64,000 bases of DNA from Candidatus Latescibacterota bacterium (GCA_965242865.1 CBDETK010000013.1:1088001-1152000); one strand, 5' to 3'; numbered from the stretch's first letter, positions 36,558 to 50,241 are shown. Made by a program: numbers and translations. Notes: generated by a model not told the origin, from the letters alone.

Positions 36558-36920
36558 TTAATCATGCCGATTCTCCTTTGGAACAAAAAAGGGAGGGCTT
36601 TCGCTCCAGACGATGCGCCCTTTTCGCAGCCAATAGTGGCAGCGGCAGGGCAAGCCGGTTACGTGGACTGAGGGTGACAGTGAAATCTGTCCGTCCACAT
36701 GTTCCGTTATGCTCCACCGTTTGTCAACTTGAGGCGACACATCCAAGTGAACAACTTGTCGGCATGTCCTGCGAGGGCAGACAATAGCTGCATAAAACGG
36801 GTGTTTGCGTCCGCCAATGATGTACACCGTATTTTTGTGGAGATCGTCCGGCAAATCCTCTACCCACTCCGTGCGGTAAGGACGGAAACGCGCCCATATA
36901 TTGAAAATCCACCTAAACAT
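36558..36920 (-). CDS. DUF6527-family protein of a Bub-type ubiquitin-like operon
   Basis: CP..C...W...ISLSPSV...CRCHYWLRKGRIVW pattern; last gene of the Ubl-E2-E1 operon. Confidence 0.75.
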   Translation of the reverse strand: MFRWIFNIWARFRPYRTEWVEDLPDDLHKNTVYIIGGRKHPFYAAIVCPRRTCRQVVHLDVSPQVDKRWSITEHVDGQISLSPSVHVTGLPCRCHYWLRKGRIVWSESPPFFVPKENRHD

Positions 36921-38307
36921 GGCTAGTGTTATTTTTCACGAGTAAGCTCCTGTCGCCTGTTCCCATGTATCGTACCATCAATGGATGTGGCCCTCCCTCG
37001 TCCGCGGCGTTTTCATAGCATCCATGCACTAGGCGAAATCGTTGAGTCGCAAATTCGGCATTGGCGTCAAAGCGATAGGCATGAATGCGGGCCATGAAAT
37101 CGTTAAACGCCATACACGCCGCCTGCATGTTGACAGACATAACCGCCGGTTGTTCCTCGCCGACAGCGGCTAAATAGCCGGCCACGCGCTGTTGTTGGTA
37201 GTACGCCGGGTCCTTTCGCTGCCAATTTTCGGCCGTCACCTGTTCCATAGTGTACGCGCCGCGCGATAGCAGGCTTTCACCTTCTGGGTGAATGTAATGC
37301 GATACGGCATCGGCGGCGGTGATACCACCTTTCCCGTCGGCCTCAAGGTGGACTCCTACGTCAAAATAGGGAATCAGATAAGCACTTGCTAGGCAATCGA
37401 GATGATACCGGCCAAAGGCGGAATCCACGCAGCCGAAGATCACATCGCAATCGACTAAAGCGGCGACGACATCCGGTGAATCCGTCAATCCTTGGTGAGC
37501 ATCTACTTTGGTTCCCAGGCCGATCTTCTGAATAGCTCGTTCAATCGCCAGCACCTTTGGCTGCTGTGTGCGGGCGTCATCTATAGTACTGTTGATGAGG
37601 CGGTTCAGGTTTTTCTCTTCTACTATATCATCGTCCACAATGACCAACTCGCTCACGCAATTACGCATGAGTAGTTCAATGATTACGCTTCCTGTGCCAG
37701 AACAGCCCACAACCCCCACTCGCATAGTGTGCAATAAATCCAACGTGCCCTTGCCGAAGGTTTGCGCTAGCTTTTCTTGGTACGCCGTTTGGCTTCGGGA
37801 TTTGTGGGCCTTCCAGATGTGGATATTATCGCCGACTGCGGAGACCGTTGGCATATCGGCGAACGTTCCATGTGCGTCCACCGTGCGGGCCGCGATCTGG
37901 CCATTCGACAACATAATGGCGGAGCCATTTGGCCGCCCGTCGTCAAACCAATTGCATACAGAAGAAAACAATTCCCGGTCGTTGCGGTCGTCAATTTTTG
38001 AAAACCGGCCACATCCTTTGGGATGGGAATGAATAGTGACTACAGACTGTCCATTCCGATCTATATCGCAGATTTTTTCTGGCGGCAGGCAGTCGCCAAA
38101 AGGCCAAGCGACAAAATCCTCTTTTCTGACCGACAGATGATGTGGCGGATACAAAACATCCGCAACGATGAGGCGGCGATGTCTCTTCCCTGTCCCTTGG
38201 TTGCACAACAAAATGGCGGCGGCCTCCAGCCCGTCTCCGGGGAAAAGGTGGTTTTTAACCGCCTCATATTGACTCGCGGTCATGGTCAGGATAGCGGTTG
38301 TCATCAC
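36913..38307 (-). CDS. JAB peptidase-ThiF/E1 fusion (Bub-type)
   Basis: N-terminal JAB E...HSHP...FSKID; ThiF VGCSGTG, DDDIVEEKNLNR, FGCVD, YFDVG. Confidence 0.85.
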   Translation of the reverse strand: MMTTAILTMTASQYEAVKNHLFPGDGLEAAAILLCNQGTGKRHRRLIVADVLYPPHHLSVRKEDFVAWPFGDCLPPEKICDIDRNGQSVVTIHSHPKGCGRFSKIDDRNDRELFSSVCNWFDDGRPNGSAIMLSNGQIAARTVDAHGTFADMPTVSAVGDNIHIWKAHKSRSQTAYQEKLAQTFGKGTLDLLHTMRVGVVGCSGTGSVIIELLMRNCVSELVIVDDDIVEEKNLNRLINSTIDDARTQQPKVLAIERAIQKIGLGTKVDAHQGLTDSPDVVAALVDCDVIFGCVDSAFGRYHLDCLASAYLIPYFDVGVHLEADGKGGITAADAVSHYIHPEGESLLSRGAYTMEQVTAENWQRKDPAYYQQQRVAGYLAAVGEEQPAVMSVNMQAACMAFNDFMARIHAYRFDANAEFATQRFRLVHGCYENAADEGGPHPLMVRYMGTGDRSLLVKNNTSHV

Positions 38308-38690
38308 CCGACTTCGGCTTTTAGCTGATTTTCTACATACTCAATATGACTGACGATGGAATCGACCCCCGGCTGCCATGAGTAATGACGCGACCAACGC
38401 TGCCAAGTCTGACCAAAATGAATCTCAGAGGCCAGAGCACCTATTGCTGAACTATCTGATTTATCAAGCGGAGGATAAAAGTAAAACATGTCCAACATCG
38501 ATCCGGGATAGCCGCTTGGAATGAGCACCATTAGCGTGGATTTTTCTACCGCATAGCCTTTGGGAATGGGAAAGTCGTCAATGAGTAGGCCATACTTACC
38601 ATTACCCTCGGCGACCTTCTTCCATTTGGACGGATAACTCGCATCCAGATATTCGTTATCCTCCGGCGGCAACTCGTAGGGATTAACCAT
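38304..38690 (-). CDS. Prokaryotic E2/UBC-fold protein (Prok-E2_E-like), cysteine-free
   Basis: IPKGY, IPSGYP..MLDMFYF.P, WQRWSRH; start MVNPY overlaps the Ubl stop. Confidence 0.8.
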   Translation of the reverse strand: MVNPYELPPEDNEYLDASYPSKWKKVAEGNGKYGLLIDDFPIPKGYAVEKSTLMVLIPSGYPGSMLDMFYFYPPLDKSDSSAIGALASEIHFGQTWQRWSRHYSWQPGVDSIVSHIEYVENQLKAEVG

Positions 38691-39408
38691 GGCCTTGCTG
38701 TGCCTGTCGCCGAACGGTCTCAAAGCGTTCAATGCCGGGACGGGATAAATCGACCGCATCGTTGGCCTTGATTCTTTCTCTTTTACCGCCGTGCAGCTTC
38801 TGGTTGAGCGACCATTCGTCATCGCGCTTGTCGGCCAGTACCAAAATACCGGCCCCGGTGATTTCTGCAGAATCCACGGTGTACTTGTCGCCGTCTATGC
38901 GGATGCGGTATTGGTGCCCTTTGGGTGGGCGGCGGTCGTTCTTGCCGCACTCCTCAAGGTCAATGGCGTCGTCCGAGGTGGGCGGGATGACGAAAAACGA
39001 GTCCGCATCTTGGACGACAATCGTCATGTCATCCGCAATTTCCACATCCACACCGCCTTCAATGTCGGCAAATAGACGCCCCTGCGGGAACTTGTCGTCC
39101 CGCTCTTTGAGGGCTTTGCCGGTAGTTTTTGCTTGTGGAAGGGCGAGGTTGCGCGATCCATTGAATTCTGGCCGCACTTCATTGCGCAACGGCGGGTTAT
39201 CCCCGATCGAGCTTTTCCCCACTACAAACCGTTCTCCACCGCGAATAATGAGATGCTCCCCTGCCAAGAGAGGAATATCTATGCCATCTTCGCGGCTCAG
39301 AAAAATTCGTCCCTCGCCGCAATCGGCGATTTCATAGAGCGCGTCAATGGAAACAAGCCCCGCACGGATTGGGGTTTCCTGCCCGTCAATTTGGATTGTT
39401 GGTTTCAC
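38683..39408 (-). CDS. Multi-ubiquitin-domain protein (probably 3 beta-grasp domains)
   Basis: Repeated IQIDG/PEFNG/IRIDG domain starts, TG...L motifs, GIERF; C-terminus QAQQG-HG. Confidence 0.8.
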   Translation of the reverse strand: MKPTIQIDGQETPIRAGLVSIDALYEIADCGEGRIFLSREDGIDIPLLAGEHLIIRGGERFVVGKSSIGDNPPLRNEVRPEFNGSRNLALPQAKTTGKALKERDDKFPQGRLFADIEGGVDVEIADDMTIVVQDADSFFVIPPTSDDAIDLEECGKNDRRPPKGHQYRIRIDGDKYTVDSAEITGAGILVLADKRDDEWSLNQKLHGGKRERIKANDAVDLSRPGIERFETVRRQAQQGHG

Positions 39409-39438: not shown

Positions 39439-39463
39439 GTCTCTTGTCTAGTGTACAAGAGAC
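39439..39463. promoter_or_regulatory. Inverted repeat in the divergent Ubl/higA intergenic region
   Basis: GTCTCTTGT-N7-ACAAGAGAC. Confidence 0.5.
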
Positions 39464-39561
39464 GCCCGCAAGCGCAAGAGGCCATTTGCGATCCAAGTGG
39501 AACGGCAGCGGCGCGAGGAGAGACGCTCGCAGACCCAACTCGCTATAGCAAGGAGTACCCC

Positions 39562-39951
39562 ATGGCTGAAGTACTCGATTTTACCAAACCTCATTTGCTG
39601 AGAAACGAAGAAGAATACGATATCGCTGTCGCCGAGATCGATGCCCTTCTCGACGCCGAGCCGCAGCCTGGGTCGGAAGAATATGAGCGGCTGGAGTTTT
39701 TATCGGTTCTAGTGGAGGCTTACGAAGACGCGCATCTTCCGGCCTACGCAGAGGCCACGCCCCAAGAAGTGGTCGATTTTATGCTGGAGCAGAAGGGTTT
39801 TTCTCGGGACGATCTGGCGCAGTGGCTGGGCAGTAGAATCCGAACAGCGGAATTTTTCAATGGCATCCGTCCGCTCTCTATCCGGCAGATTAGCACATTG
39901 AGAGCACATCTAGGCATTCCAGCGGACTTACTGGTGGACCTTTCCTCATAG
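39562..39951 (+). CDS. higA: HigA-like antitoxin/HTH regulator with no adjacent toxin
   Basis: EEEYDIAVAEIDAL...LSVLVEAYE...FMLEQKG...RPLSIRQISTL...GIPADLL; AAGGAG RBS. Confidence 0.8.
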   Translation: MAEVLDFTKPHLLRNEEEYDIAVAEIDALLDAEPQPGSEEYERLEFLSVLVEAYEDAHLPAYAEATPQEVVDFMLEQKGFSRDDLAQWLGSRIRTAEFFNGIRPLSIRQISTLRAHLGIPADLLVDLSS

Positions 39952-40269: not shown

Positions 40270-40287
40270 TACGTTCTTTCAAGCGGG

Positions 40288-40410
40288 GAGCAGAGCATCG
40301 AGTACGGCGCGGGCCTGTGTGCCGTAGCGGGTGAATAGGTCCCGCTTCTTCACGTTCTCAGCCCGCTCGCGCCGAGTGAGCGGGGCTGGCCATAGACCAC
40401 GTAGCAGATC
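40288..40410 (-). pseudogene. Diverged fragment of the hsdR 3' region (direct repeat of 52083..52206)
   Basis: 123 bp aligns with hsdR with 9 substitutions and a 1-nt deletion; reads ICYVVYGQP/LTRRERAENVKKRDLFTRYGTQARAVLDALL. Confidence 0.85.
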
Positions 40411-40414
40411 CCAA

Positions 40415-40448
40415 ATATTGTAGAAATTGTCAAAGTATCCTACAATAT
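40415..40448 (+). promoter_or_regulatory. Sigma70-like promoter overlapped by a 9-bp inverted repeat
   Basis: TTGTAG(40418)-N17-TACAAT(40441) within ATATTGTAG-N16-CTACAATAT. Confidence 0.45.
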
Positions 40449-40542
40449 ATGGTATTCATCCTCTATAAACTTCGCGGAAGAATCGAGCCATAGAGGGCCG
40501 GAGAGCGCATTAACGACCATGGAGCAAGATTGTGAAGACAAC

Positions 40543-40584
40543 TTTCCGGTTTCCCTTCTGCAATGCGATTATTAGAGAGTAGAA
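40543..40584 (+). promoter_or_regulatory. Bipartite motif TTTCCG-N17-CGATTA, copy 1
   Basis: TTTCCG 40543-48, CGATTA 40566-71, then TTAGAGAGTAGAA; about 62 nt before the sigma-like gene. Confidence 0.65.
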
Positions 40585-40632
40585 GGGGCCTTATGTGCTC
40601 GGAATCCGCCGTTATTTAAGGAAAGGAAGGTA

Positions 40633-41376
40633 ATGGCTTGCCCATTGACTAAACGAAAAGCGACTGGGGACCTATATATCCGTCCTCTTCAAGTAGAGAG
40701 ACAGATTGATGAGGTCCTTTCCCAAGACCCATCGACGCTCCGACGACGCCTCATTGTTGCAGACCCCCAAGCGTCCGACTATCTAAGTTCGGAGTGCCTT
40801 GTCCATCTCGCTCGCTACTACCATAGGCACGGCGACGACTCTAAGACTAATGCGGTACTCTCCGTCTTACTAGGTCGCTGTGAAAAAACCCTATCGGCCA
40901 AAATCCCAGACAATGAACTCCCGACTGCGAGGGAGGTACGAGAGGAAGTGATTGGACAGTTCGGCGAGTTATTTGCTACCGATGGTACGCAAGAGAACCG
41001 CGACGACCTTGACTATTTTGAGTGTCGCTTCAATGGGGCGTTTCGCACTTTTTACATCGATATCGTAAGAAGTGAAACAGCCCCTCTAAAGCGATTAGCC
41101 CCCCTGCCAGACCAAGCCGACGACACCCACAAGGAATTGCAGAGTCCAGAAACAGCAGATAGTGCTTTATTCTGCAAAGAACTCCACGAAGCGATTGATG
41201 CTTTGCCGGATGACATGCGCAAGGCTGTCATCCTTTGCCATATCGAGGGATACAAAATCGAATCTCAGAACCCCAACGAGGCGACAGCAGCGACGATCTG
41301 CAAAGTATCAGGCCGAACCATTCGTAACCGTCTTTTGAGGGCAGCAGGGAAACTTTCTAAATTTAAGGATCAATAA
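40633..41376 (+). CDS. Divergent sigma-70/ECF-like factor (region 4 HTH at C-terminus)
   Basis: LHEAIDALPDDMRKAVILCHIEG...AATICKVSGRTIRNRLLRA region-4 pattern; weak region-2-like F..F..D..R; AAAGGAAGG RBS. Confidence 0.7.
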   Translation: MACPLTKRKATGDLYIRPLQVERQIDEVLSQDPSTLRRRLIVADPQASDYLSSECLVHLARYYHRHGDDSKTNAVLSVLLGRCEKTLSAKIPDNELPTAREVREEVIGQFGELFATDGTQENRDDLDYFECRFNGAFRTFYIDIVRSETAPLKRLAPLPDQADDTHKELQSPETADSALFCKELHEAIDALPDDMRKAVILCHIEGYKIESQNPNEATAATICKVSGRTIRNRLLRAAGKLSKFKDQ

Positions 41377-41387
41377 TTCGGATATTT

Positions 41388-41412
41388 TAAGTCTTTGTTT
41401 ATCAATGACTTA
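41388..41412. promoter_or_regulatory. TAAGTC-N13-GACTTA palindrome containing an IHF consensus
   Basis: TAAGTCTTTGTTTATCAATGACTTA; TATCAATGACTTA fits WATCAANNNNTTR. Confidence 0.5.
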
Positions 41413-41436
41413 ACGTTAAAATACTAAGGAGGAGAC

Positions 41437-42108
41437 ATGTCCGTGACCCCAACCCTCAATGAGTTACCACTACGCGAGGTGTTGTATGAGTTTTCGCTAG
41501 CGAAGACCGTACCTGATGCAGACCTGCTCGACGATTTCGTTCAGCGGTTTCCGCAGTATGCTGACCGCCTCACGGAATTCGCCATCGAACTCGCTATAGA
41601 TGCTCTCCGGCCCGAGCCCGAGATCGACGCGAAGGCGACGGTTGATCTGAACCGTGTGAGTCCCGTTGTCTCGCGGGCAATGAGCCGATACCTGAATCGG
41701 CTACACGCCGTGCGCCAAACAACCGAGCCGACTGTCGACCGCGCTTCGACACCAGAAGTTGCAGATGCTCCAAATCCCTTCGCTAAACTAAACCGATCAG
41801 CGTTTCGGGAGTTAGCAGAGCGGCTCGGCGCGAACACTGTGTTCGTTGCCAAGCTGCGAGACCGCCAAGTCAAGCCGGATACCATCCCAAGCAGTTTTTT
41901 GCGGTACCTTGCAGATGCGCTTGGGACTTCACTTGACTTATTAACTGCCCACTTTGCTGTACCAAGCGCGGAACTTGGGAGCCGACAGTTTTACAAGGCC
42001 GATGACAAGCCTGATGGCAGTCAACGCCAGAGCTTCGTCGAGGCTGTTAAGAGTTCGGCTCTCAACGAGAACCAGCAGCACCAACTTCTTTCTAAGTTTC
42101 TAAACTGA
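41437..42108 (+). CDS. Hypothetical regulator: helical N-domain plus XRE-like HTH (candidate anti-sigma or repressor)
   Basis: DDFVQRFPQYADRL N-terminal helices; ELAERLGANTVFVAKLRD...FLRYLADALG HTH-like; TGATG overlap with the next gene. Confidence 0.55.
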   Translation: MSVTPTLNELPLREVLYEFSLAKTVPDADLLDDFVQRFPQYADRLTEFAIELAIDALRPEPEIDAKATVDLNRVSPVVSRAMSRYLNRLHAVRQTTEPTVDRASTPEVADAPNPFAKLNRSAFRELAERLGANTVFVAKLRDRQVKPDTIPSSFLRYLADALGTSLDLLTAHFAVPSAELGSRQFYKADDKPDGSQRQSFVEAVKSSALNENQQHQLLSKFLN

Positions 42109-45100
42109 TGGACGCATTCGAGCCGATCCGTAAGTCCGCGGCGTGTCTGCACAAGGCTATCGCGGCGCGGACGGACCCTCTAGATACTACGGCACTTATT
42201 ACGGTCGCTGTGGCTCATCTAGATCTTGAACTCGTCTGTCTTGAGCCGGGTGATCCTGCTCTAAAAAATGCCCAGGCGGTGTTCGACGAACAGAGCGGTA
42301 CGATCTGCTGTGAAAAGATAGGGGATGGCACTGACCTTGCCTTGCTTGTGGCTCACGAACTTGGACATGCAGTTGTCCATGCTGGTTCGGCAGTTTGCAA
42401 GACGGATGACATTGATCCAGCTCGTTCGACTGAGACGGTCCCCGTTGGCTTGCAACGTGTCGAGGATTATGGGGCGCGGGAAAGGCGCGAATTACAGGCC
42501 AATGTTTTCGCTCGGGAGCTTCTCTTGCCCCAGAGTCTTGCACGTCGGCTCCATATTGAGGAGACCATGACCGCCTCGGCTATCGCCTCGCGCATGGGCT
42601 TGCCAAAGGCACTCGTCCGACAGCAGATATTTGACGCTCTTCTACTTCCGACGGAAGAGGAAGTAACTCCGGCGGAGACTTCGACCGATACACCGCGTTC
42701 GGATCCCTCGCAGGACCGGGCAGCCGCACATCGTGGTGCCCCGTTCCTGCTTCAGGCCGGGCCGGGAACCGGAAAAACACGGACGCTGGTAAAGCGCGTA
42801 AAATCGCTTCTAGCGGAGGACATTGATCCTTCCTCCCTACTCATCCTGACCTTCTCAAATCGGGCCGCTGGCGAGTTGTTGGAACGGCTTATGGCCATAG
42901 TCCCCGAGGCCGCTGAGCGTATTTGGATCGGAACGTTCCATGCTTTCGGACTTGATCTGATACGACGTCACTATGACCGTCTTGGCCTGTCCCCTAATCC
43001 AGTCCTGTTTGACCGCAGTGATGCGATTGATATGCTGGAGGAGCTCCTCCCAACGCTGCCTCTCGTCCACTACCGCAACTTATGGGATCCGACGATAGTG
43101 CTGCGAGAAGTGCTCCCTGCCATCTCTCGTGCTAAAGATGAGCTCGTAGATCGAAGCCGCTACCGAGAGCTCGCCGAAGCTATGCGAGCGGACGCAGACG
43201 ACAATGACGCTCGCGTGGCAGCCGAGAAGTGCTTGGAGATCGCCGACATTTATGATCTCTACGAAAGTGCCATGAGCGAACGGGATGCTGTTGATTTTGG
43301 CGATCTCATCATGCGGCCGGTATTGCTCTTAGAATCCGATCCAGCACTCAAGCACACTGTTCAGTTGCGGCACCGACACCTTCTAGTTGATGAATATCAG
43401 GACGTAAATCGGGCGAGCGCATGTTTGCTAAAAGCGATTGCTGGTGATGGCAAGCGTCTATGGGTGGTCGGCGACTCGCGTCAATCCATCTACCGCTTTC
43501 GCGGAGCGTCCCCTATCAACATGGCTCGCTTTGGCGACGACTACCCGGGGGCAGTAGTTGACCAACTCTCCGTCAATTACAGATCGACAGACCAGATCGT
43601 CGCCAGTTTCGTCAAGGTAGCTCCCCGGATGGGTGCATCCAAAGGCATGTTGCCACTTGCTCTTGACGCTGACCGAGGTTTGGGACCCGGAAAACCAGAA
43701 ATTCGGTGCTATGACACTCCCGACGACGAAGCTGGAGGTATCGCCGGAAGCATCCAAGAACTCAAAAGGGCGGGGGTTTCTCTCCGCGATCAGGCTGTGC
43801 TTTGTCGCTCGAACCGCCATCTGAATGAAATCGCCACAGCACTTGAAGCACACGGCATTCCTGCACTGCATCTCGGCAGTTTATTTGAGCGTGAGGAAAT
43901 ACGCGATTTGCTAGCACTTCTCAGCCTCGCAGTTGATCGGTTGGGTAATGGTCTCGTGCGGGTGGGAGTAATGCCGCGCTATGATCTCTCGTTGCAAGGC
44001 ATATATACCGCCTTGCACCACCTGCGGGATAGCAAGCAATCGGCCCTTTCGGGTATAGGGACGCTTGCTAAGGCTCAAGGTCTCTCGCCTGACGATTCAT
44101 CGGCATTTGCCCGCCTTGCACAGGATCTATCGGGACTCTCCCCAAGCATTTCCGCATGGGAATTTCTCTCAACGTATTTGCTTGACCACACTAATCTCGT
44201 GTGCGAGATGGCTCAAGCCACTACAGTCACCGACCGCATTCGGAACGTTGCTATTTGGCAATTTCTTAACTTCGCCCGCGAACGGCTCAAGACAGACAAG
44301 GGGTTGCTGATTCAGCGGATGCTGGATCGTATTCGGCAACTCGTACTGCTCGCCGAAGAACGGGATTTGCGCCAAATGCCTGCCGCTGCCCTCCATCTAG
44401 ACGCAGTGCGGCTGATGACCGTTCATGGTAGTAAGGGGCTAGAATTTGAAGCAGTCCATGTCCCTAGACTGACGACTGGAAATTTCCCTTCGTCGTACCG
44501 TGGCGTAAGATGCCCACCACCTATCGGTATGACTGAAGGCGCAGAGAGCTCTTCGGTCTCAAAAGAGGCCAAACAGAAACACAATCACGAGGAAGAGTGC
44601 TTGTTTTTTGTTGCCCTCTCGCGAGCACGAACCCATTTACGCCTTTACTTGGCGCATCGGAACTCTAACGGCAGGAACTGCTCGCCATCGCCTTTCTTGA
44701 ATTGGCTGCCAACGGGGACAATCGACAAAGTTGCCCATCCGGTGATCCTGCCACCGCCAGCCAACATGCACAGCCCAGGGTCTATCCAAGTGAGGCGACC
44801 CACCGAATGGCACGTCACGGACAGTACGCTTATCTCCTACGAGAAATGTCCCCGTCGCTTCTTCTATACCCATGTGTTGGGGCTCGGTGGTGCCCGTAAA
44901 GCGACCGCCTATTCGCAGACTCAGGACTGTCTCTACAAACTCATTCGGTGGGTGGGCGAGCGTCGGCTAACAGCCGAACCTACACTTAGCGAGACTGAAG
45001 ACGCTTTCGATACGATCTGGCATGCACACGGGCCAATCTCCCACAAGTTCGCTGACGAATACCGCCGCCTCGCCTTGCGGTTAATAGGTGTCTTAGTTAA

Positions 45101-45536
45101 TGCCAACACTGGACAGCATTTCCGTGAAGTCAAACCGTTGGTGATTGATTTCTTAAATGGTCGCGTGTCCATAGAGCCAGATGCGATCATCAACTTACCG
45201 GACGGAAAAGTCGCTTTGTGCAAAATCCGCACCGGCGATAAGCGCAACAACGAATATAATCGCCTTGACTACGCACTCTATCAGTTGGCCAGTCAGCAAC
45301 ACTTCGGTAACCATTCAGTGACTCAGGTTCTGTACCTTACAAACACAAACGGGATGTTCAAAGATGTGCAGATCTCGCCGAAAACGCTCAACAATCGGCG
45401 GTGTACGATTGATGGGATGCTCGGTGAGATTGCTAAGGGGAAGTTCCCACCCAAGATCAATGAAATGACATGCCCGCGATGTCCGCACTTTTTCATCTGT
45501 GATGCTATGCCTCGTGGATCTCTGACGCTCCCATAA
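42108..45536 (+). CDS. IrrE/ImmA metallopeptidase + UvrD (SF1A) helicase + C-terminal PD-(D/E)XK-fold Fe-S domain fusion
   Basis: AHELGH and ELQANVFA (IrrE); AGPGTGKT, TFSNRAA, TFH, VDEYQD, GDSRQSIYRFRGA, NYRS, TVHGSKGLEF, VALSRA (UvrD); YEKCPRRF...CPRCPHFFIC. Confidence 0.9.
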   Translation: MDAFEPIRKSAACLHKAIAARTDPLDTTALITVAVAHLDLELVCLEPGDPALKNAQAVFDEQSGTICCEKIGDGTDLALLVAHELGHAVVHAGSAVCKTDDIDPARSTETVPVGLQRVEDYGARERRELQANVFARELLLPQSLARRLHIEETMTASAIASRMGLPKALVRQQIFDALLLPTEEEVTPAETSTDTPRSDPSQDRAAAHRGAPFLLQAGPGTGKTRTLVKRVKSLLAEDIDPSSLLILTFSNRAAGELLERLMAIVPEAAERIWIGTFHAFGLDLIRRHYDRLGLSPNPVLFDRSDAIDMLEELLPTLPLVHYRNLWDPTIVLREVLPAISRAKDELVDRSRYRELAEAMRADADDNDARVAAEKCLEIADIYDLYESAMSERDAVDFGDLIMRPVLLLESDPALKHTVQLRHRHLLVDEYQDVNRASACLLKAIAGDGKRLWVVGDSRQSIYRFRGASPINMARFGDDYPGAVVDQLSVNYRSTDQIVASFVKVAPRMGASKGMLPLALDADRGLGPGKPEIRCYDTPDDEAGGIAGSIQELKRAGVSLRDQAVLCRSNRHLNEIATALEAHGIPALHLGSLFEREEIRDLLALLSLAVDRLGNGLVRVGVMPRYDLSLQGIYTALHHLRDSKQSALSGIGTLAKAQGLSPDDSSAFARLAQDLSGLSPSISAWEFLSTYLLDHTNLVCEMAQATTVTDRIRNVAIWQFLNFARERLKTDKGLLIQRMLDRIRQLVLLAEERDLRQMPAAALHLDAVRLMTVHGSKGLEFEAVHVPRLTTGNFPSSYRGVRCPPPIGMTEGAESSSVSKEAKQKHNHEEECLFFVALSRARTHLRLYLAHRNSNGRNCSPSPFLNWLPTGTIDKVAHPVILPPPANMHSPGSIQVRRPTEWHVTDSTLISYEKCPRRFFYTHVLGLGGARKATAYSQTQDCLYKLIRWVGERRLTAEPTLSETEDAFDTIWHAHGPISHKFADEYRRLALRLIGVLVNANTGQHFREVKPLVIDFLNGRVSIEPDAIINLPDGKVALCKIRTGDKRNNEYNRLDYALYQLASQQHFGNHSVTQVLYLTNTNGMFKDVQISPKTLNNRRCTIDGMLGEIAKGKFPPKINEMTCPRCPHFFICDAMPRGSLTLP

Positions 45537-45551
45537 ATTTTTTGCGACGGC

Positions 45552-45591
45552 TTTCCGTTTTCTTCCGTTCTATCCGATTAATAGAGTAGAA
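45552..45591 (+). promoter_or_regulatory. Bipartite motif TTTCCG-N17-CGATTA, copy 2
   Basis: TTTCCG 45552-57, CGATTA 45575-80, then ATAGAGTAGAA; about 69 nt before the Ubl gene. Confidence 0.65.
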
Positions 45592-45648
45592 AGCAGAGAC
45601 AGGCAATGGAGCCTATATCTAGCTCTAAGGTCAAGGAGGCCTTATATA

Positions 45649-46155
45649 ATGGATCGTATCGATGTGTTTTACCAATGTGAGGGGATCAGCGAGATCGGGC
45701 AGATCGATGTTGACGCTGACGCTACCTTCGCGACGGTCAAATCCGAGCTCGCCGACAAGCACGGCCTCGCCGAGGAAGTGATCATCTCTCTAGAGGATGA
45801 TGACGAACGAATCGACGAAAACAGGCAAGTGAAGGAATTCGCCGACCTGACCGTCATTATGGTCCACCTGAATCGCTGCCGTTGCATCGAAGCCAGTGTG
45901 AACTATAACGGTCGTACTGTCGATCACAGCTTCGGACCGAGCGCGACTATCGCCCGTGTCAAAAAATGGGCGGCTGAGGAGTATGGAATGAGTCCCGAAG
46001 ATGCCGGTGAACATTCCCTGCAAATCGTCGACACTCAAAACAGGCCAGCACCGGGGACTCATATTGGTAGGCTGGTTTGCTGCCCTGATTGCAACTTGGC
46101 CTTCGACCTCGTTGCCGACGAGCGCGTGAACGGGTCGACCGGGAGCACAGCTTGA
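45649..46155 (+). CDS. bilA: Ubiquitin-like protein, two-domain ISG15-like (Bil system)
   Basis: Two [16 protein letters not shown] beta-grasp-like units; ERVNG followed by a 6-aa extension; first gene of the Ubl-E2-JAB-E1 operon; AAGGAGG RBS. Confidence 0.75.
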
Positions 46156-46619
46156 GCCCCCCTGACCAACGGGCATTCGAGGCGGACGTGGCAAAGGCCA
46201 CGTTCCGCCTTGGAGAACGACAAGGGCGTTGGTGCTTGATCTGCATAGATTGGCCCTTCGTCTTGATCTCTGTGACTGCAAAAGACAGACGCGAATATGT
46301 GCTACGCTTCAACTGTGCAGGTTATCCGCAAGACCCGCCCACGGGCGGCCTGTGGGATCGCACCCGGAATGCGATCTTGGAACCCAATTGCTGGCCACAG
46401 GGCCAAGGGGGTCGCGTTTCGGCAGTTTTCCGCTCCGACTGGAAGAGTGGATCTGCTTTGTACTTACCTTGCGACCGTGAAAGCATTGCTGGACACGATG
46501 GCTGGCGAACCGAGATGCCGTCAAAAATCTGGCGTCCGGCTGACGGGATCATCCAATACTTGGAAATCGTTTATGAACTTCTCCATAGCCCAGATTATAC
46601 GCCGCTGCCTTGCACCTAA
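46152..46619 (+). CDS. bilB: E2-like conjugating enzyme
   Basis: [23 protein letters not shown] (candidate catalytic Cys), H.GW; TTGA overlap with the Ubl gene. Confidence 0.75.
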
Positions 46620-47091
46620 GCATGAACTGTCCTGTTCTTGGTTTCTCTGGCGTCGCTTGCTCACCGGCTTACGGGAGCGCGGTCACAGCGAGTCGCGGGA
46701 AAGCGGTGCTTTTCTACTAGGTTACCATAACGGCCAACGTGCCCGCATCGTTGATTTTGTCTTGTATGATGATCTCGATCCGCACTGCCTTGATACCGGC
46801 ATCGTCCGATTCGACGGGCGATATTTCGGAAAACTTTGGGATATTTGCAAAAACCGTGATCTGATTGTCGTGGCCGATGTTCATGTCCATCCGAGGGGAT
46901 CACAGCAAAGTGAGTCGGATCGCACCCATCCTATGATTTCGTGTAAAGGGCACTTGGCACTAATCCTGCCGCGTTTTGCAGCCAATCCGCTCCCAAGGCG
47001 CGAAATTGGTATCTACCGATACCAAGGGGCCAAGCAGTGGCAGAATATTGCGTCCACTGACCGGAGGGCTTTTTTCCATATCGGCCTATAG
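46573..47091 (+). CDS. bilC: JAB/MPN deubiquitinase-like peptidase
   Basis: RESGAFLLG...DVHVHP....QSESD JAMM motif. Confidence 0.8.
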
Positions 47092-47101
47092 GGAATTATC
47101 T

Positions 47102-48466
47102 ATGAACGCTAAACCGAATGCCGACAGCCTGCACCGCTTGGTTAAGTACGCGCTCGATAGCGGAGAGGCCAAGACTCTCGCCGAGGCGGAGAAGCTATTT
47201 CGTGGCTATCGCCTTGCGCTTACCATTCACGGGGCCGAATCTCGAAGTTCACTCAATCAAGTCGCGTTGTTGACGGCGGTTGCTCTTGGCCGCCGTGTAT
47301 TCCTCGGCGGAGTTTCCGTAGAAGGCGACTTAGATGTACCGCTGAAAGTACCGCTACCGCTCCGCTCTAGGCTTCACGAGGCTGTGGGCGATCTCGGTGG
47401 ATCGGTTACGCCTTCTGACGACGAAACGCCGACCATTGCTATTGGTGGCGGCCCTCGCCCACGACAGCCTGGGTTTCACATCCGTACGGCAATCGCCGGA
47501 TGGCGCGGTGGCATCCTTCCGGCGCACTCAGAATTGGTGCCGACCCCTGGACCTACGATTCCGTTAGCGGCTATGCTGTCCGCTGGCCTCGCGGTCAATG
47601 AAGCCTTCCAGTTTGTGGACAGCGGCGGTCCTGCGGTGGGACGACGACCAATAGGATTGTCGCTGTGGCGGCCCGATGCAGACTGGCTGGCATCCGACTT
47701 AGACGGGCCTCAGATTGCCTATCTTCCATCGCGGCTTTGGCTGATCGGGCTCGGGCACCTAGGACAAGCGTATCTTTGGGGGCTTGGGTTACTGCCCTAT
47801 AAGGATCCGGGGAAGCTCTCTCTCGTCCTGCAAGATATAGATAAGATCACGCCATCGACCGAAAGCACATCGATCTTGAGCGGCGCGGGCACGGTGGGCC
47901 AAAAAAAGACCCGTGCTATGGCAGCTTGGGCAGAAAAACGTGGGTTTGCGACAGCGTTGCACGAGCGACTGTTCGATGCCAGTTTCCGCCGCCAAGATAG
48001 AGAACCAACCGTCGCGTTGTGTGGTTTGGATAATGCGCCAGGACGGCAAGCACTTGATCAAGTGGGCTTTGAGTTGATTGTCGAGGCTGGGCTTGGGAGA
48101 GGGCAACAAGACTTCCGTACCATGCGCCTGCACGTACTACCGGGGGCACGTTCGGCGAAGGAGCTTTGGAAACTGGCAGCACCTGCTGAAACAGCTACGG
48201 ATCGCCCCGCCTATCAAGAGATGCTCAAAAGTGGCGAATTGGATCGTTGCGGCGTTACGCTTCTAGCCGGTAAGGCGGTCGGTGCTCCCTTTGTAGGCAC
48301 CGTGGCTGCTACGCTGGTACTGTCTCAAGTGCTACGCTTACTCCACGGCGAGAGCCCCTATCAGCTAATCGATCTTAATCTGCTCTCTGTTGACCATTGC
48401 TCTACCGTTCCTAGTTCCAAGTGCTTTCAGTCTCTCAACCCCGGATACACTGCCGAACTCTATTGA
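47102..48466 (+). CDS. bilD: E1-like activating enzyme (N-terminal inactive domain + ThiF + Cys domain)
   Basis: LIGLGHLG, LQDID, CGLDNAPGR, EAGLG, LDRCG (candidate catalytic Cys), GAPFVG. Confidence 0.78.
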   Translation: MNAKPNADSLHRLVKYALDSGEAKTLAEAEKLFRGYRLALTIHGAESRSSLNQVALLTAVALGRRVFLGGVSVEGDLDVPLKVPLPLRSRLHEAVGDLGGSVTPSDDETPTIAIGGGPRPRQPGFHIRTAIAGWRGGILPAHSELVPTPGPTIPLAAMLSAGLAVNEAFQFVDSGGPAVGRRPIGLSLWRPDADWLASDLDGPQIAYLPSRLWLIGLGHLGQAYLWGLGLLPYKDPGKLSLVLQDIDKITPSTESTSILSGAGTVGQKKTRAMAAWAEKRGFATALHERLFDASFRRQDREPTVALCGLDNAPGRQALDQVGFELIVEAGLGRGQQDFRTMRLHVLPGARSAKELWKLAAPAETATDRPAYQEMLKSGELDRCGVTLLAGKAVGAPFVGTVAATLVLSQVLRLLHGESPYQLIDLNLLSVDHCSTVPSSKCFQSLNPGYTAELY

Positions 48467-48573: not shown

Positions 48574-50241
48574 TCAAACGACGTTGGTTGCGGCTACAGC
48601 GGAGGCGTCGTGATGTTTCCTTTTATCGACGAGGTGTTGCTCCAATTGGTCAATCAGCCCCATCAGTTCATCGACTTTGGCGACGATGCGGTGCTGTTCG
48701 GCAGTCGGCGGGAGTGGCACAGGCGCACGAAGGAGGTCGGTATCATTGATGGCGGGATACGCGACCCCTTTCATTTGGGCCGTGACGAAATCGACAAAAA
48801 ATGGAGCGCGGAGATAGAAGAACAAGAGACGGCTATGCACCCCAGAGTGCGGATGTAAAACGGCGAATGCCGTGGAGGCAATCGGCGTTGGAGAGTATTC
48901 GCAATCAACTACGGCGATGTTGAGTAGATATGGACGAACAGTAGAGTAGATGACCGATTCAAGACGAACCAACTTTCGGGCACGGGAAGGAGCCTCGCTG
49001 GGGTCGAGAATAGGAACTGCGCTGATGATTGCACCGCGTTTGTTGTCAATCGCGCTTACGTCAATGTACGAGAACGTTTTATCAGGCACCTTCTGGCCGA
49101 GATCGTGCGCCAGATCGTGGAGCCGCACCCAAGTCCAAGACCGGGGAATCTCAAAAGGAATCTCGGCGGACATAAGAGGGCCATAGGACTTGCGCTTTCG
49201 CACCTTCTTCTTTTTAACCAGTTCCGCCTTCTCAGCAACGATCAATTCGAGCAATCGGCCCGCTGGTTCGTCCCCCGAATCCTGCTCCACCAACCGCCCC
49301 CGTACCGCAAGCTGAAGCACGGCCTCGCGCAACGGCACCAGATCGGCCGGATCCGTGAACAAGTCGTCCATCCGCTCGGCAATGCACATCCATGCAGCCG
49401 AGACCTCTTTGGGGGTAGCAGCATTCCGAAGCGTGGCGAGTGCTGAGTCTCGGCCGGCGATGCGGGCGGCCTCGCGGCTACTCCGCGCAGCCTCCAGCCG
49501 GTCAATTAAACCCATCAATTCATCGACTTTGGCGACGATGCGGTGTTGTTCTGCTTCAGGCGGCAACGGAAATAGTGCTTGGCGAGCCTTGTCCGTTCCC
49601 AGTCGCGGCAGGTTCATGCCGTGTGTTGAGGAGTTGGCATACTGCACAAAGTACGGTGACTTCAATACAAGTCGAATGAATTGTGGAGTGAGACCGACGA
49701 ATCCTCTTATTGGCATTATCTCAGAAGTACATACACCATCTTCATTGGCGATAATTACCTTGTCGAGATACGGACGTAGCTTTCCGTATAAGACATCGCC
49801 TTTGTAGAAGCGATTTTTGGCACTCTTGAAGGGTCTCATTCCATAGCGCACCCGGTTAAGAAGCCGAGAAGACACCTTCTCTATATCTTCAAGTTCAAGT
49901 ACCCAGGTCTCTTTACTGACTTCGCTAGGCTCGGCTTTCTTGGTCGTCCCGTAACTAGTGATCTCCCCCAAGTGCGTCCATTCCCAACTGACGGGGATTC
50001 CAAAAGGAAACTCGGCGTCTTTTATCGTCGGTAGCGGTTTCCTCGTTCTGATCTGATGACTTCGACGCGCTTTTTCATCCGCAATGCGTTCCAGAAGCAC
50101 CGAGGCCGATTCGTCCCCCGCATCCTGCGGCACCAGCCTCCCCCGCACCGCAAGCTGAAGCACCAACGCCCGCAGCCGCTCAACCCCTCCCGGCGCCTCG
50201 GCGATCACATCAAACGCGGCGATGAACTCCCCCGGCGTCAT
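48574..50241 (-). CDS. hsdS: Type I R-M specificity subunit (two TRDs)
   Basis: Duplicated conserved blocks LQLAVRGRLV.QD, PF.IP.SW.W and PLPP.AEQHRIVAKVDELMGLID. Confidence 0.93.
   Translation of the reverse strand: MTPGEFIAAFDVIAEAPGGVERLRALVLQLAVRGRLVPQDAGDESASVLLERIADEKARRSHQIRTRKPLPTIKDAEFPFGIPVSWEWTHLGEITSYGTTKKAEPSEVSKETWVLELEDIEKVSSRLLNRVRYGMRPFKSAKNRFYKGDVLYGKLRPYLDKVIIANEDGVCTSEIMPIRGFVGLTPQFIRLVLKSPYFVQYANSSTHGMNLPRLGTDKARQALFPLPPEAEQHRIVAKVDELMGLIDRLEAARSSREAARIAGRDSALATLRNAATPKEVSAAWMCIAERMDDLFTDPADLVPLREAVLQLAVRGRLVEQDSGDEPAGRLLELIVAEKAELVKKKKVRKRKSYGPLMSAEIPFEIPRSWTWVRLHDLAHDLGQKVPDKTFSYIDVSAIDNKRGAIISAVPILDPSEAPSRARKLVRLESVIYSTVRPYLLNIAVVDCEYSPTPIASTAFAVLHPHSGVHSRLLFFYLRAPFFVDFVTAQMKGVAYPAINDTDLLRAPVPLPPTAEQHRIVAKVDELMGLIDQLEQHLVDKRKHHDASAVAATNVV

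Follow-up and report, generated by a model that had tools for sequence, protein, structure and literature searches.

In the classical pairs of extracytoplasmic function (ECF) sigma and anti-sigma factors, sigmaE/RseA and AlgU/MucA, the sigma factor is freed by regulated proteolysis. In the ImmR/ImmA and DdrO/IrrE systems, M78-type peptidases cut XRE repressors after DNA damage, and CapH, DdrO, and ImmR are all substrates of peptidases of this type. For the operons that encode the ubiquitin-like (Ubl) conjugation systems Bil and Bub, the regulators named in passages of the Bil and Bub papers (PMC10557695, PMC11601596) and of the CapK/CapS paper are CapW/BrxR, CapH together with CapP, and CapK together with CapS, and a passage of Chambers et al. 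reports one CapH/CapP case in which the genes are not divergent (PMC10557695). In Myxococcus xanthus, the ECF sigma factor DdvS and the anti-sigma factor DdvA control a defense island of CRISPR-Cas and the cyclic-oligonucleotide-based anti-phage signaling system (CBASS), as described in a passage of PMC11506125. Here, we analyze a window of 64,000 nucleotides (nt) from Candidatus Latescibacterota bacterium (CBDETK010000013.1:1088001-1152000; coordinates are counted along the window), in which the bipartite motif TTTCCG-N17-CGATTA stands upstream of a sigma-like gene and again upstream of bilA. Comparison of sequences indicates that these motifs, TTTCCGG/CGATYA in their general form, very likely mark two promoters whose cognate sigma factor is the product of the gene at 40633-41376. 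The analysis bears on how costly anti-phage systems stay silent and are then switched on.

The Two Motif Sites

The features of the two putative promoters are as follows.

40542..40552, plus strand: -35 element of the sigma-operon promoter, CTTTCCGGTTT, with the core TTTCCG at 40543-40548
40566..40571, plus strand: CGATTA, the -10 element of the sigma-operon promoter, separated by 17 nt from the -35 core and by 61 nt from the ATG at 40633; 23.5 bits
40572..40584, plus strand: purine-rich tail TTAGAGAGTAGAA following the -10 box of the sigma-operon promoter
45551..45561, plus strand: -35 element of the bil promoter, CTTTCCGTTTT, with the core TTTCCG at 45552-45557
45575..45580, plus strand: CGATTA, the -10 element of the bil promoter, separated by 17 nt from the -35 core and by 68 nt from the bilA ATG at 45649; 26.1 bits
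45581..45591, plus strand: tail ATAGAGTAGAA behind the -10 box of the bil promoter

The first-pass annotation had placed the motif twice at these positions, and both copies are indeed on the plus strand with a gap of exactly 17 nt. It had also given distances of 62 and 69 nt to the start codons, in agreement with -10 hexamers that end 61 and 68 nt upstream of the ATGs. The spacers, noted there as equal in length and different in sequence, are identical at 8 of 17 positions by manual count, an agreement that stems partly from a conserved G-n-TT directly 3' of the -35 box, and the spacers of relatives are variable in sequence as well. The tail at 40572-40584 is probably the start-site region of the sigma-operon promoter, and it differs from the bilA-side tail by a 2-nt AG insertion. 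The annotated tail pattern WTAGAG(AG)TAGAA thus describes both tails of the window, but it is only partially conserved in relatives, where the bilA side carries a purine-rich GGTAAGGG located 4-11 nt 3' of the -10 box and the tail columns of the sigma side hold little information.

The pattern TTTCCG-N16-18-CGATTA is found twice in the window against 0.03 expected occurrences, and none of 100 shuffled sequences contained two or more. A consensus scan of 40270-40632 and 45537-45648 for a housekeeping sigma70-like promoter (TTGACA-N16-18-TATAAT) found none.

Rarity across the Genome

In the whole 6.0-Mb genome, TTTCCG-N16-18-CGATTA has six matches. The four beyond the window all belong to a single repeated element, found on contigs C9 (positions 5814 and 16224) and C12 (2621 and 13126) in at least four copies (loci L001-L004), about 10.4 kb apart on each of these two small contigs. 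The motif copies in this element have one common spacer, lack the tail, and are flanked by opposite-strand genes. Because they belong to the same repeated element and share the same spacer, they count as a single independent chance match, which is about the expectation for 12 specified bases in 6 Mb.

A matrix of 35 columns was built from 88 distinct sites at loci of other genomes, with the window left out. Its information is concentrated in two peaks, C-TTTCCGG-n-TT, with 1.5-1.9 bits per column, and (G)CGAT(C/T)A, and the 13 intervening bases are free. Under this matrix the window sites score 23.5 bits on the sigma side and 26.1 bits on the bilA side, nothing else in the window reaches 12 bits, and the two sites take the first two ranks when both strands of the whole genome are scored. 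The match at rank 3 (C13:4069309, minus strand, 21.0 bits) lies antisense in a long helicase-like open reading frame (ORF), RecD2-like by eye, and was judged to be a chance match. Five other carrier genomes contain two to eight exact pattern matches each; these include both cassette sites in four of the genomes and the bilA-side site alone in the fifth, and the cassette sites in these genomes start with TTTCCGG and have TT one or two bases on. The genome scan that the first-pass annotation had proposed as a check therefore shows the motif to be rare.

Conservation of the Motif at Related Loci

The two putative promoters precede the following genes, of which the first three are referred to below as the sigma module and, together with the Ubl operon behind them, as the cassette.

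40633..41376, plus strand: ECF-like sigma factor P0001, 247 amino acids (aa), assigned from Sigma70_r4_2, an AlphaFold2 (AF2) model, and Foldseek and VIA matches
41437..42108, plus strand: candidate anti-sigma factor P0002, 223 aa, assigned from complex prediction, with weak XRE-like fold matches
42108..45536, plus strand: P0003, 1142 aa, a peptidase-helicase-nuclease fusion, assigned from Pfam and PADLOC GajB-like matches
45649..46155, plus strand: bilA, a ubiquitin-like protein (PADLOC BilA, 1.2e-51)

The comparison set consists of 80 loci that contain a relative of the sigma factor, one genome per species, with gene order taken from tblastn. The order at related loci is sigma factor, P0002, and P0003, followed by bilA in 53 of the 80; many of the loci without bilA end at contig ends. 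The cassette is collinear across phyla, with carriers labeled Latescibacterota, Alpha-, Beta-, and Gammaproteobacteria, Acidobacteriota, Binatia, Myxococcales, and Chthoniobacterales, among others, and the family is also found on conjugative plasmids.

The consensus of the motif in relatives is cTTTCCGGnTT-N13-CGAT(C/T)A, upstream of the sigma gene and of bilA. An anchoring script flagged the motif in 59 of 68 sigma-upstream regions, where the spacer is 17 nt in 51, 18 nt in four, 16 nt in two, and 19 nt and 15 nt in one each, and in 52 of 53 bilA-upstream regions, where it is 17 nt in all 52; these counts include the mis-anchored rows L058 and L073 on the sigma side and L063 on the bilA side, and the sites of L058 and L063 are present by eye. 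The sole miss on the bilA side, L044, has a 30.5-bit site 270 nt upstream in a matrix scan, and the nine misses on the sigma side comprise L035 and eight members of a distant clade. Start codons follow the -10 box at a median distance of 62-63 nt. A matrix scan of the 80 loci (1.44 Mb, both strands) returned 58 matches of at least 15 bits before the sigma gene and 54 before bilA, counts at canonical positions that carry some circularity, since these sites had served to train the matrix, together with 10 within the sigma gene at a fixed offset, four before bubA, and a background of seven elsewhere, a count that is not circular and of which three are further promoters in the cassette. Among cassette loci outside the training set, L105, L108, and L109 have sites of 23.7-40.1 bits in front of both genes, and L111 has sites of 16.6 and 20.4 bits.

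The motif is therefore present at homologous loci upstream of both genes, with a spacer that is mostly 17 nt long and free in sequence. The first-pass annotation had argued for selection rather than recent duplication, and the comparison bears this out, as both positions are kept across dozens of loci in several phyla with diverged spacers. Runs of at least four A/T bases occur within 25 nt upstream of the -35 box at 36 of 46 distinct sigma-upstream sites and 18 of 45 distinct bilA-upstream sites, and the bilA site of the window has TTTTTT in this position; such runs may be a UP-element-like feature.

The Motif Travels with the Sigma Module

In a distant clade, in which the sigma factor is 27-29% identical, the module is followed by a different Ubl operon with Multi_ubiq, DUF6791-ThiF, and DUF6527 genes. 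This layout corresponds to Type II Bub in a passage of PMC11601596. At all nine loci with a Bub-sized operon behind P0003, TT(A/T)CCG-N17-CGATTA stands upstream of bubA; the operon is confirmed as Bub by Pfam in four of the nine (L072, L073, L075, and L086) and deduced from ORF sizes in the others. The operon of L077, a locus without P0003, is also Bub by Pfam. Bil operons without the module have the motif in none of four cases (L107, L117, L118, and L119). The best matrix scores in the 300 nt upstream of bilA lie between -12.8 and -6.5 bits at L117, L118, and L119 (the third being -10.2), and L107 has no match of at least 10 bits upstream of bilA. The regulators at these loci are divergent CapH/CapP genes at L107 and L118 and a divergent XRE-family gene at L119; no regulator was seen at the Bil operon of L117.

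Distant sub-clades of the cassette keep the -35 core and have a -10 box that is altered alike at both promoters of a locus: CGACTT and CGACTT in L112, CGACTA and CGACTG in L116, and TTTGTA and GTTGTA in L114. In L110, the spacer is 18 nt at both promoters. Over 31 loci, the -10 boxes of one locus agree at 5.45 of 6 positions, compared with 4.38 when partners are shuffled (0 of 10,000 permutations), a significance that is overstated because related loci are not independent and that includes seven of the 31 pairs read by eye.

Within the Bub-linked clade (L072-L086), a site TTACCG-N17-CGAT(T)A/G lies about 570 nt into the sigma gene and about 200 nt upstream of the anti-sigma gene, and a site upstream of the sigma gene is found in L073 only. 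In this arrangement, the sigma factor of the clade would drive the anti-sigma gene and P0003, not its own gene. A weaker internal match lies at the same place in six loci that are not Bub-linked (L024, L025, L027, L028, L035, and L046).

Further variants of the cassette were observed. A third strong copy of the motif, at L025:8153 (32.3 bits) and L028:8146 (29.3 bits), precedes a gene inserted just 5' of the sigma gene; in L025 the copy is about 60 nt upstream of the ATG, and the gene encodes 486 aa with a Peptidase_C14 caspase domain. L111, a Cupriavidus plasmid, has the sigma and anti-sigma genes and lacks the helicase-peptidase gene before bilA, and in L077 the sigma and anti-sigma genes are followed directly by the Bub operon. 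In L113, a Sphingorhabdus plasmid, only a 100-aa ORF remains at the sigma position, and since it adjoins an IS256 transposase, the sigma gene looks cut by insertion. These last three loci are natural variants of the cassette and possible natural knock-outs.

The ECF-Like Sigma Factor P0001

The sole curated match of P0001 is Pfam Sigma70_r4_2, at 27.7 bits against a cut-off of 25.7. Its AF2 model, built with 53 homologues, has a mean predicted local distance difference test (pLDDT) score of 84.8 and consists of two helical domains with a disordered linker between them at residues 155-176, and all leading Foldseek and VIA matches are sigma factors. Escherichia coli sigmaE (1or7_A) aligns to residues 51-247 with a Z score of 10.3, isolated sigma4 domains align with Z scores of 9.6-10.2 and root-mean-square deviations (rmsd) of 1.2-2.5 Å, and 2h27_A aligns with a Z score of 10.2 and an rmsd of 2.5 over 68 residues. 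In the model, P0001 has the two-domain sigma2 and sigma4 architecture of ECF sigma factors without regions 1.1 and 3, and its sigma2 part is recognized at the fold level only. It also has a conserved N-terminal extension of about 50 residues. Because both the fold and the leading structure matches are those of sigma factors, P0001 is taken as a divergent ECF-like sigma factor, which agrees with the sigma-like gene of the first-pass annotation. The trait of a conserved bipartite promoter upstream of the factor's own operon is present (59 of 68 regions flagged), except in the Bub-linked clade. A profile search of 1.84 billion entries returned 438 cluster representatives of the family at E <= 1e-30 and 1070 at E <= 1e-10.

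The Candidate Anti-Sigma Factor P0002 and the Fusion Protein P0003

P0002 has no family match in Pfam, NCBIfam, or PADLOC, a profile search of Protein Data Bank (PDB) sequences gave nothing meaningful, and Foldseek gave no match at E <= 0.001. When P0001 and P0002 were predicted as a complex, the interaction prediction score from aligned errors (ipSAE) was 0.80 in three runs, compared with 0.00 for the best of three controls; of 157 solved complexes, 116 attain this value, as do two of 215 mismatched pairs. The runs have at least 84% of contacts in common, and the partner has a pLDDT of at least 74. The predicted contacts place residues 10-96 of P0002, its N-terminal helices, on sigma residues 73-146 and 183-242, and this placement between sigma2 and sigma4 is like that of anti-sigma domains generally. 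On these models, P0002 is a candidate anti-sigma factor of P0001. Its residues 110-177 form an XRE-like helix-turn-helix fold with structure matches to 3kxa (Z 6.2), CapH (7t5u, Z 5.0), DdrO (6rnz, Z 4.9), and ImmR (7t8i, Z 4.7), all of them weak and in a range that the tool rates as common.

P0003 consists of an M78/IrrE-like peptidase at residues 81-173 with the motif HELGH, a UvrD-type helicase at 200-865, and a PD-(D/E)XK nuclease at 906-1132. The HExxH motif is kept in 71 of 73 relatives of P0003 at the matched loci, and the helicase motifs are intact, with the Walker A motif GPGTGKT at residue 218 and motif II, DEYQD, at 428.

Proposed Mechanism and Alternative Explanations

Conservation at homologous loci, rarity in the genome, and the ECF fold of P0001 together support the proposal of the first-pass annotation that the motif is the cognate promoter of the sigma factor of the locus. 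The sigma-side promoter would drive the operon of the sigma factor, the candidate anti-sigma factor, and P0003, resulting in positive autoregulation, and the second promoter would drive bilABCD. In the resting cell, as the predicted complex suggests, P0002 would sit between sigma2 and sigma4 and so hold the sigma factor. Upon an encounter of the helicase-nuclease part of P0003 with phage or damaged DNA, the M78 domain would cut the anti-sigma factor, and the freed sigma factor would then amplify its own operon and turn on Bil ubiquitin-like conjugation. The proteolytic trigger, namely M78 cleavage of the anti-sigma factor after DNA sensing, is proposed by analogy with CapH/CapP, ImmR/ImmA, and DdrO/IrrE, and we consider the chances that it operates here to be even.

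Because it brings its own sigma factor and promoters, the cassette could work in hosts of many phyla. Taken as a whole, it might be a portable, host-independent alarm circuit, in which a helicase-nuclease protein with an M78 domain cuts an anti-sigma/XRE-like hybrid and frees a private sigma factor for private promoters. The sigma factor would boost its own operon and whichever Ubl system sits behind the promoter, and in some loci an extra effector, e.g., a caspase-like protease. This comprehensive picture is offered tentatively, at slightly below even confidence.

Several observations weigh against these proposals. At the sequence level, Pfam Sigma70_r2 has no match in P0001, and TIGR02937, at 22.1 bits, stays below its cut-off of 42.9, so that sequence models recognize region 4 only. 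The usual ECF promoter consensus is of the AAC/CGT type, from which the boxes of the cassette differ. At 13 of 13 loci of the Bub-linked clade, the second site is internal to the sigma gene, and autoregulation of that gene therefore does not extend to every locus; moreover, since this internal match overlaps codons of conserved residues, it may partly be a coding effect. The complex prediction may lean on known sigma/anti-sigma structures, and P0003, which PADLOC matches as GajB-like, may be an effector in addition to or instead of a sensor. The weakness of the XRE-like matches, the partial circularity of the matrix counts, and the overstated permutation test, all described above, count in the same direction.

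Alternatively, the motif could serve as the operator of a helix-turn-helix repressor, with the XRE-like domain of P0002 as the candidate, which would be cut by the M78 peptidase as in CapH/CapP, with transcription from an ordinary host promoter. The resemblance of residues 110-177 to the DNA-binding domains of XRE, CapH, DdrO, and ImmR proteins and the M78 domain of neighboring P0003 speak for it, as does the control of some Bil and Bub operons by CapH/CapP in passages of PMC10557695 and PMC11601596. However, the two boxes are mutually unlike and have no dyad symmetry, and their geometry is that of a promoter, i.e., a fixed 17-nt gap, a free spacer, and 60-70 nt to the start codons. The consensus scan of both intergenic regions found no sigma70-like promoter beside the motif, the true CapH/CapP Bil operons (L107 and L118) lack it, and the complex prediction assigns sigma binding to the N-terminal half of P0002. 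We consider an operator unlikely.

A second alternative, judged to be improbable to a marginally greater degree, holds that the motif is a promoter for an alternative sigma factor encoded by the host and that the cassette protein is another type of regulator, e.g., a LuxR-like activator. Plasmid records (L112 and L116) label the homologue as a LuxR family regulator, and region 4 alone passes a curated sequence cut-off. On the other hand, the constancy of the motif in carriers of many phyla would need one common host sigma specificity, and P0001 has sigma2-like and sigma4-like domains with a flexible linker and whole ECF sigma factors as its best structure matches. The -10 variants, furthermore, shift together at both promoters and alongside the divergence of the cassette protein. 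That the two copies arose by chance or are the functionless remnant of a recent local duplication is rejected on the comparative data and has a negligible probability: an unrelated repeated element of the same genome does carry the 12 specified bases by chance, but only 0.03 sites are expected per window, the two sites are the top two matches of the genome, and both positions are conserved over dozens of loci in several phyla with diverged spacers.

The bil Operon and the Defense Island

Downstream of bilA, the operon continues with the following features, and its leader contains a predicted RNA structure.

46089..46619, plus strand: open frame with bilB (E2); PADLOC BilB, 4.9e-60, with the match from residue 24
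46297..47091, plus strand: open frame with bilC (JAB deubiquitinase); PADLOC BilC, 4.1e-66 (residues 101-263), and a weak Pfam Prok-JAB match
47102..48466, plus strand: bilD (E1); PADLOC BilD, 8.9e-170, at residues 46-492 of the long frame 46976-48466
45592..45624, plus strand: stem-loop predicted for the bilA leader, with a GGC-AAUnnn-GCC hairpin inside an outer stem

The Ubl protein, E2, JAB deubiquitinase, and E1 of a Bil system are all present, in the order bilA-bilB-bilC-bilD. Since the family match of bilB begins at residue 24, its true start is probably near 46158, and bilD probably starts at the ATG at 47102 within its longer frame.

The bilA leader is conserved in L007-L069 as GGTAAGGGACGAAG...GGCAAU...CUUCGAUCCC, and its stem-loop recurs in single-sequence folds across loci. 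On alignment A4, with a structure taken from one sequence, 70% of cells pair, compared with 33-46% when partners are slid, and the covariation score is 0.187 versus 0.136 in shuffles (0 of 500). RNAalifold predicted no pairs on a MAFFT alignment of bilA leaders, and Rfam found no family over 40300-45800, with one chance snoRNA match (E 0.73). In many loci, the 3' arm of the stem-loop can by eye pair instead with the GGAG ribosome-binding site (GCACUUCG/CGGAGUGC), an alternative pairing that suggests a translational switch.

A second Ubl system adjoins the cassette on the minus strand at 36913-39408.

38683-39408, minus strand: Multi_ubiq protein
38304-38822, minus strand: Prok-E2_E protein
36913-38307, minus strand: JAB-ThiF fusion

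The island thus holds two Ubl conjugation systems back to back, and no copy of the motif is found upstream of the Multi_ubiq/Prok-E2_E/JAB-ThiF system. At 39451-39951, a 166-aa ORF is probably a fragment, because it matches only the first 121 positions of PADLOC PD-Lambda-2_B, and a specificity subunit of a type I restriction-modification system lies behind the bil operon at 48574-50241 (minus strand). Both fit a defense island.

Comparison with Known Systems

Passages of the Bil, Bub, and CapK/CapS papers make no mention of a sigma factor or a helicase-fused peptidase, and a module that joins sigma, anti-sigma, and M78-helicase genes to Bil or Bub was not found in the literature searched, which did not cover the supplementary tables that could list such neighbors. 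If true, the sigma-release mechanism would join the three described classes of Bil/Bub regulators, and the alarm circuit, if it holds, would be the first to act by sigma release. The motif also provides a sequence signature for finding co-controlled genes, for example those behind its third copy in L025 (caspase-like) and L028. The promoter is short, strict, and rare in genomes, and with the sigma factor and the predicted anti-sigma factor that accompany it, it could serve as an orthogonal sigma/promoter pair for synthetic biology.

The cassette resembles CapH with CapP in that an M78/IrrE-type HExxH peptidase stands beside an XRE-like protein in a defense island and the pair is immediately followed by a Bil or Bub operon, with proteolysis as the likely means of release. 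It differs in that its peptidase forms one protein with a UvrD helicase and a PD-(D/E)XK nuclease and the XRE-like protein has an extra N-terminal domain that is predicted to hold a sigma factor. Because a dedicated sigma factor is encoded, control would be positive, through sigma release, rather than by derepression. The genes are co-directional with bil instead of divergent, and where CapH/CapP has a palindromic operator, the cassette has a -35/-10 pair. The M78 HExxH peptidase of CapH/CapP systems is therefore found here, whereas a free-standing XRE repressor on an operator in a divergent promoter is not. The substrates in ImmR/ImmA and DdrO/IrrE are plain repressors without a sigma factor; the likeness to these systems lies in the helix-turn-helix-like domain of P0002, which aligns weakly with theirs (Z 4.7-4.9), and in the IrrE-like Pfam domain of P0003.

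Like sigmaE/RseA and AlgU/MucA, the cassette has a protein with a sigma fold, a predicted placement of the anti-sigma factor between sigma2 and sigma4, and a probably autoregulated operon. Unlike them, it would be cytoplasmic and linked to DNA rather than to the envelope, with a protease of the M78 type in place of site-1 and site-2 proteases, its boxes are TTTCCGG/CGATYA, and its sigma factor has the conserved N-terminal extension of about 50 residues. As described in a passage of PMC11506125, DdvS/DdvA is similar in that a dedicated pair of an ECF-type sigma factor and an anti-sigma factor turns on adjoining anti-phage systems. DdvA is a transmembrane protein by the same description, whereas P0002, which matches no family, is a predicted soluble protein with an XRE-like domain; the cassette also adds a peptidase-helicase-nuclease protein and serves ubiquitin-like systems. 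The cassette is thus a combination of two known kinds of control, that by ECF sigma and anti-sigma factors and that of defense operons triggered by an M78 peptidase.

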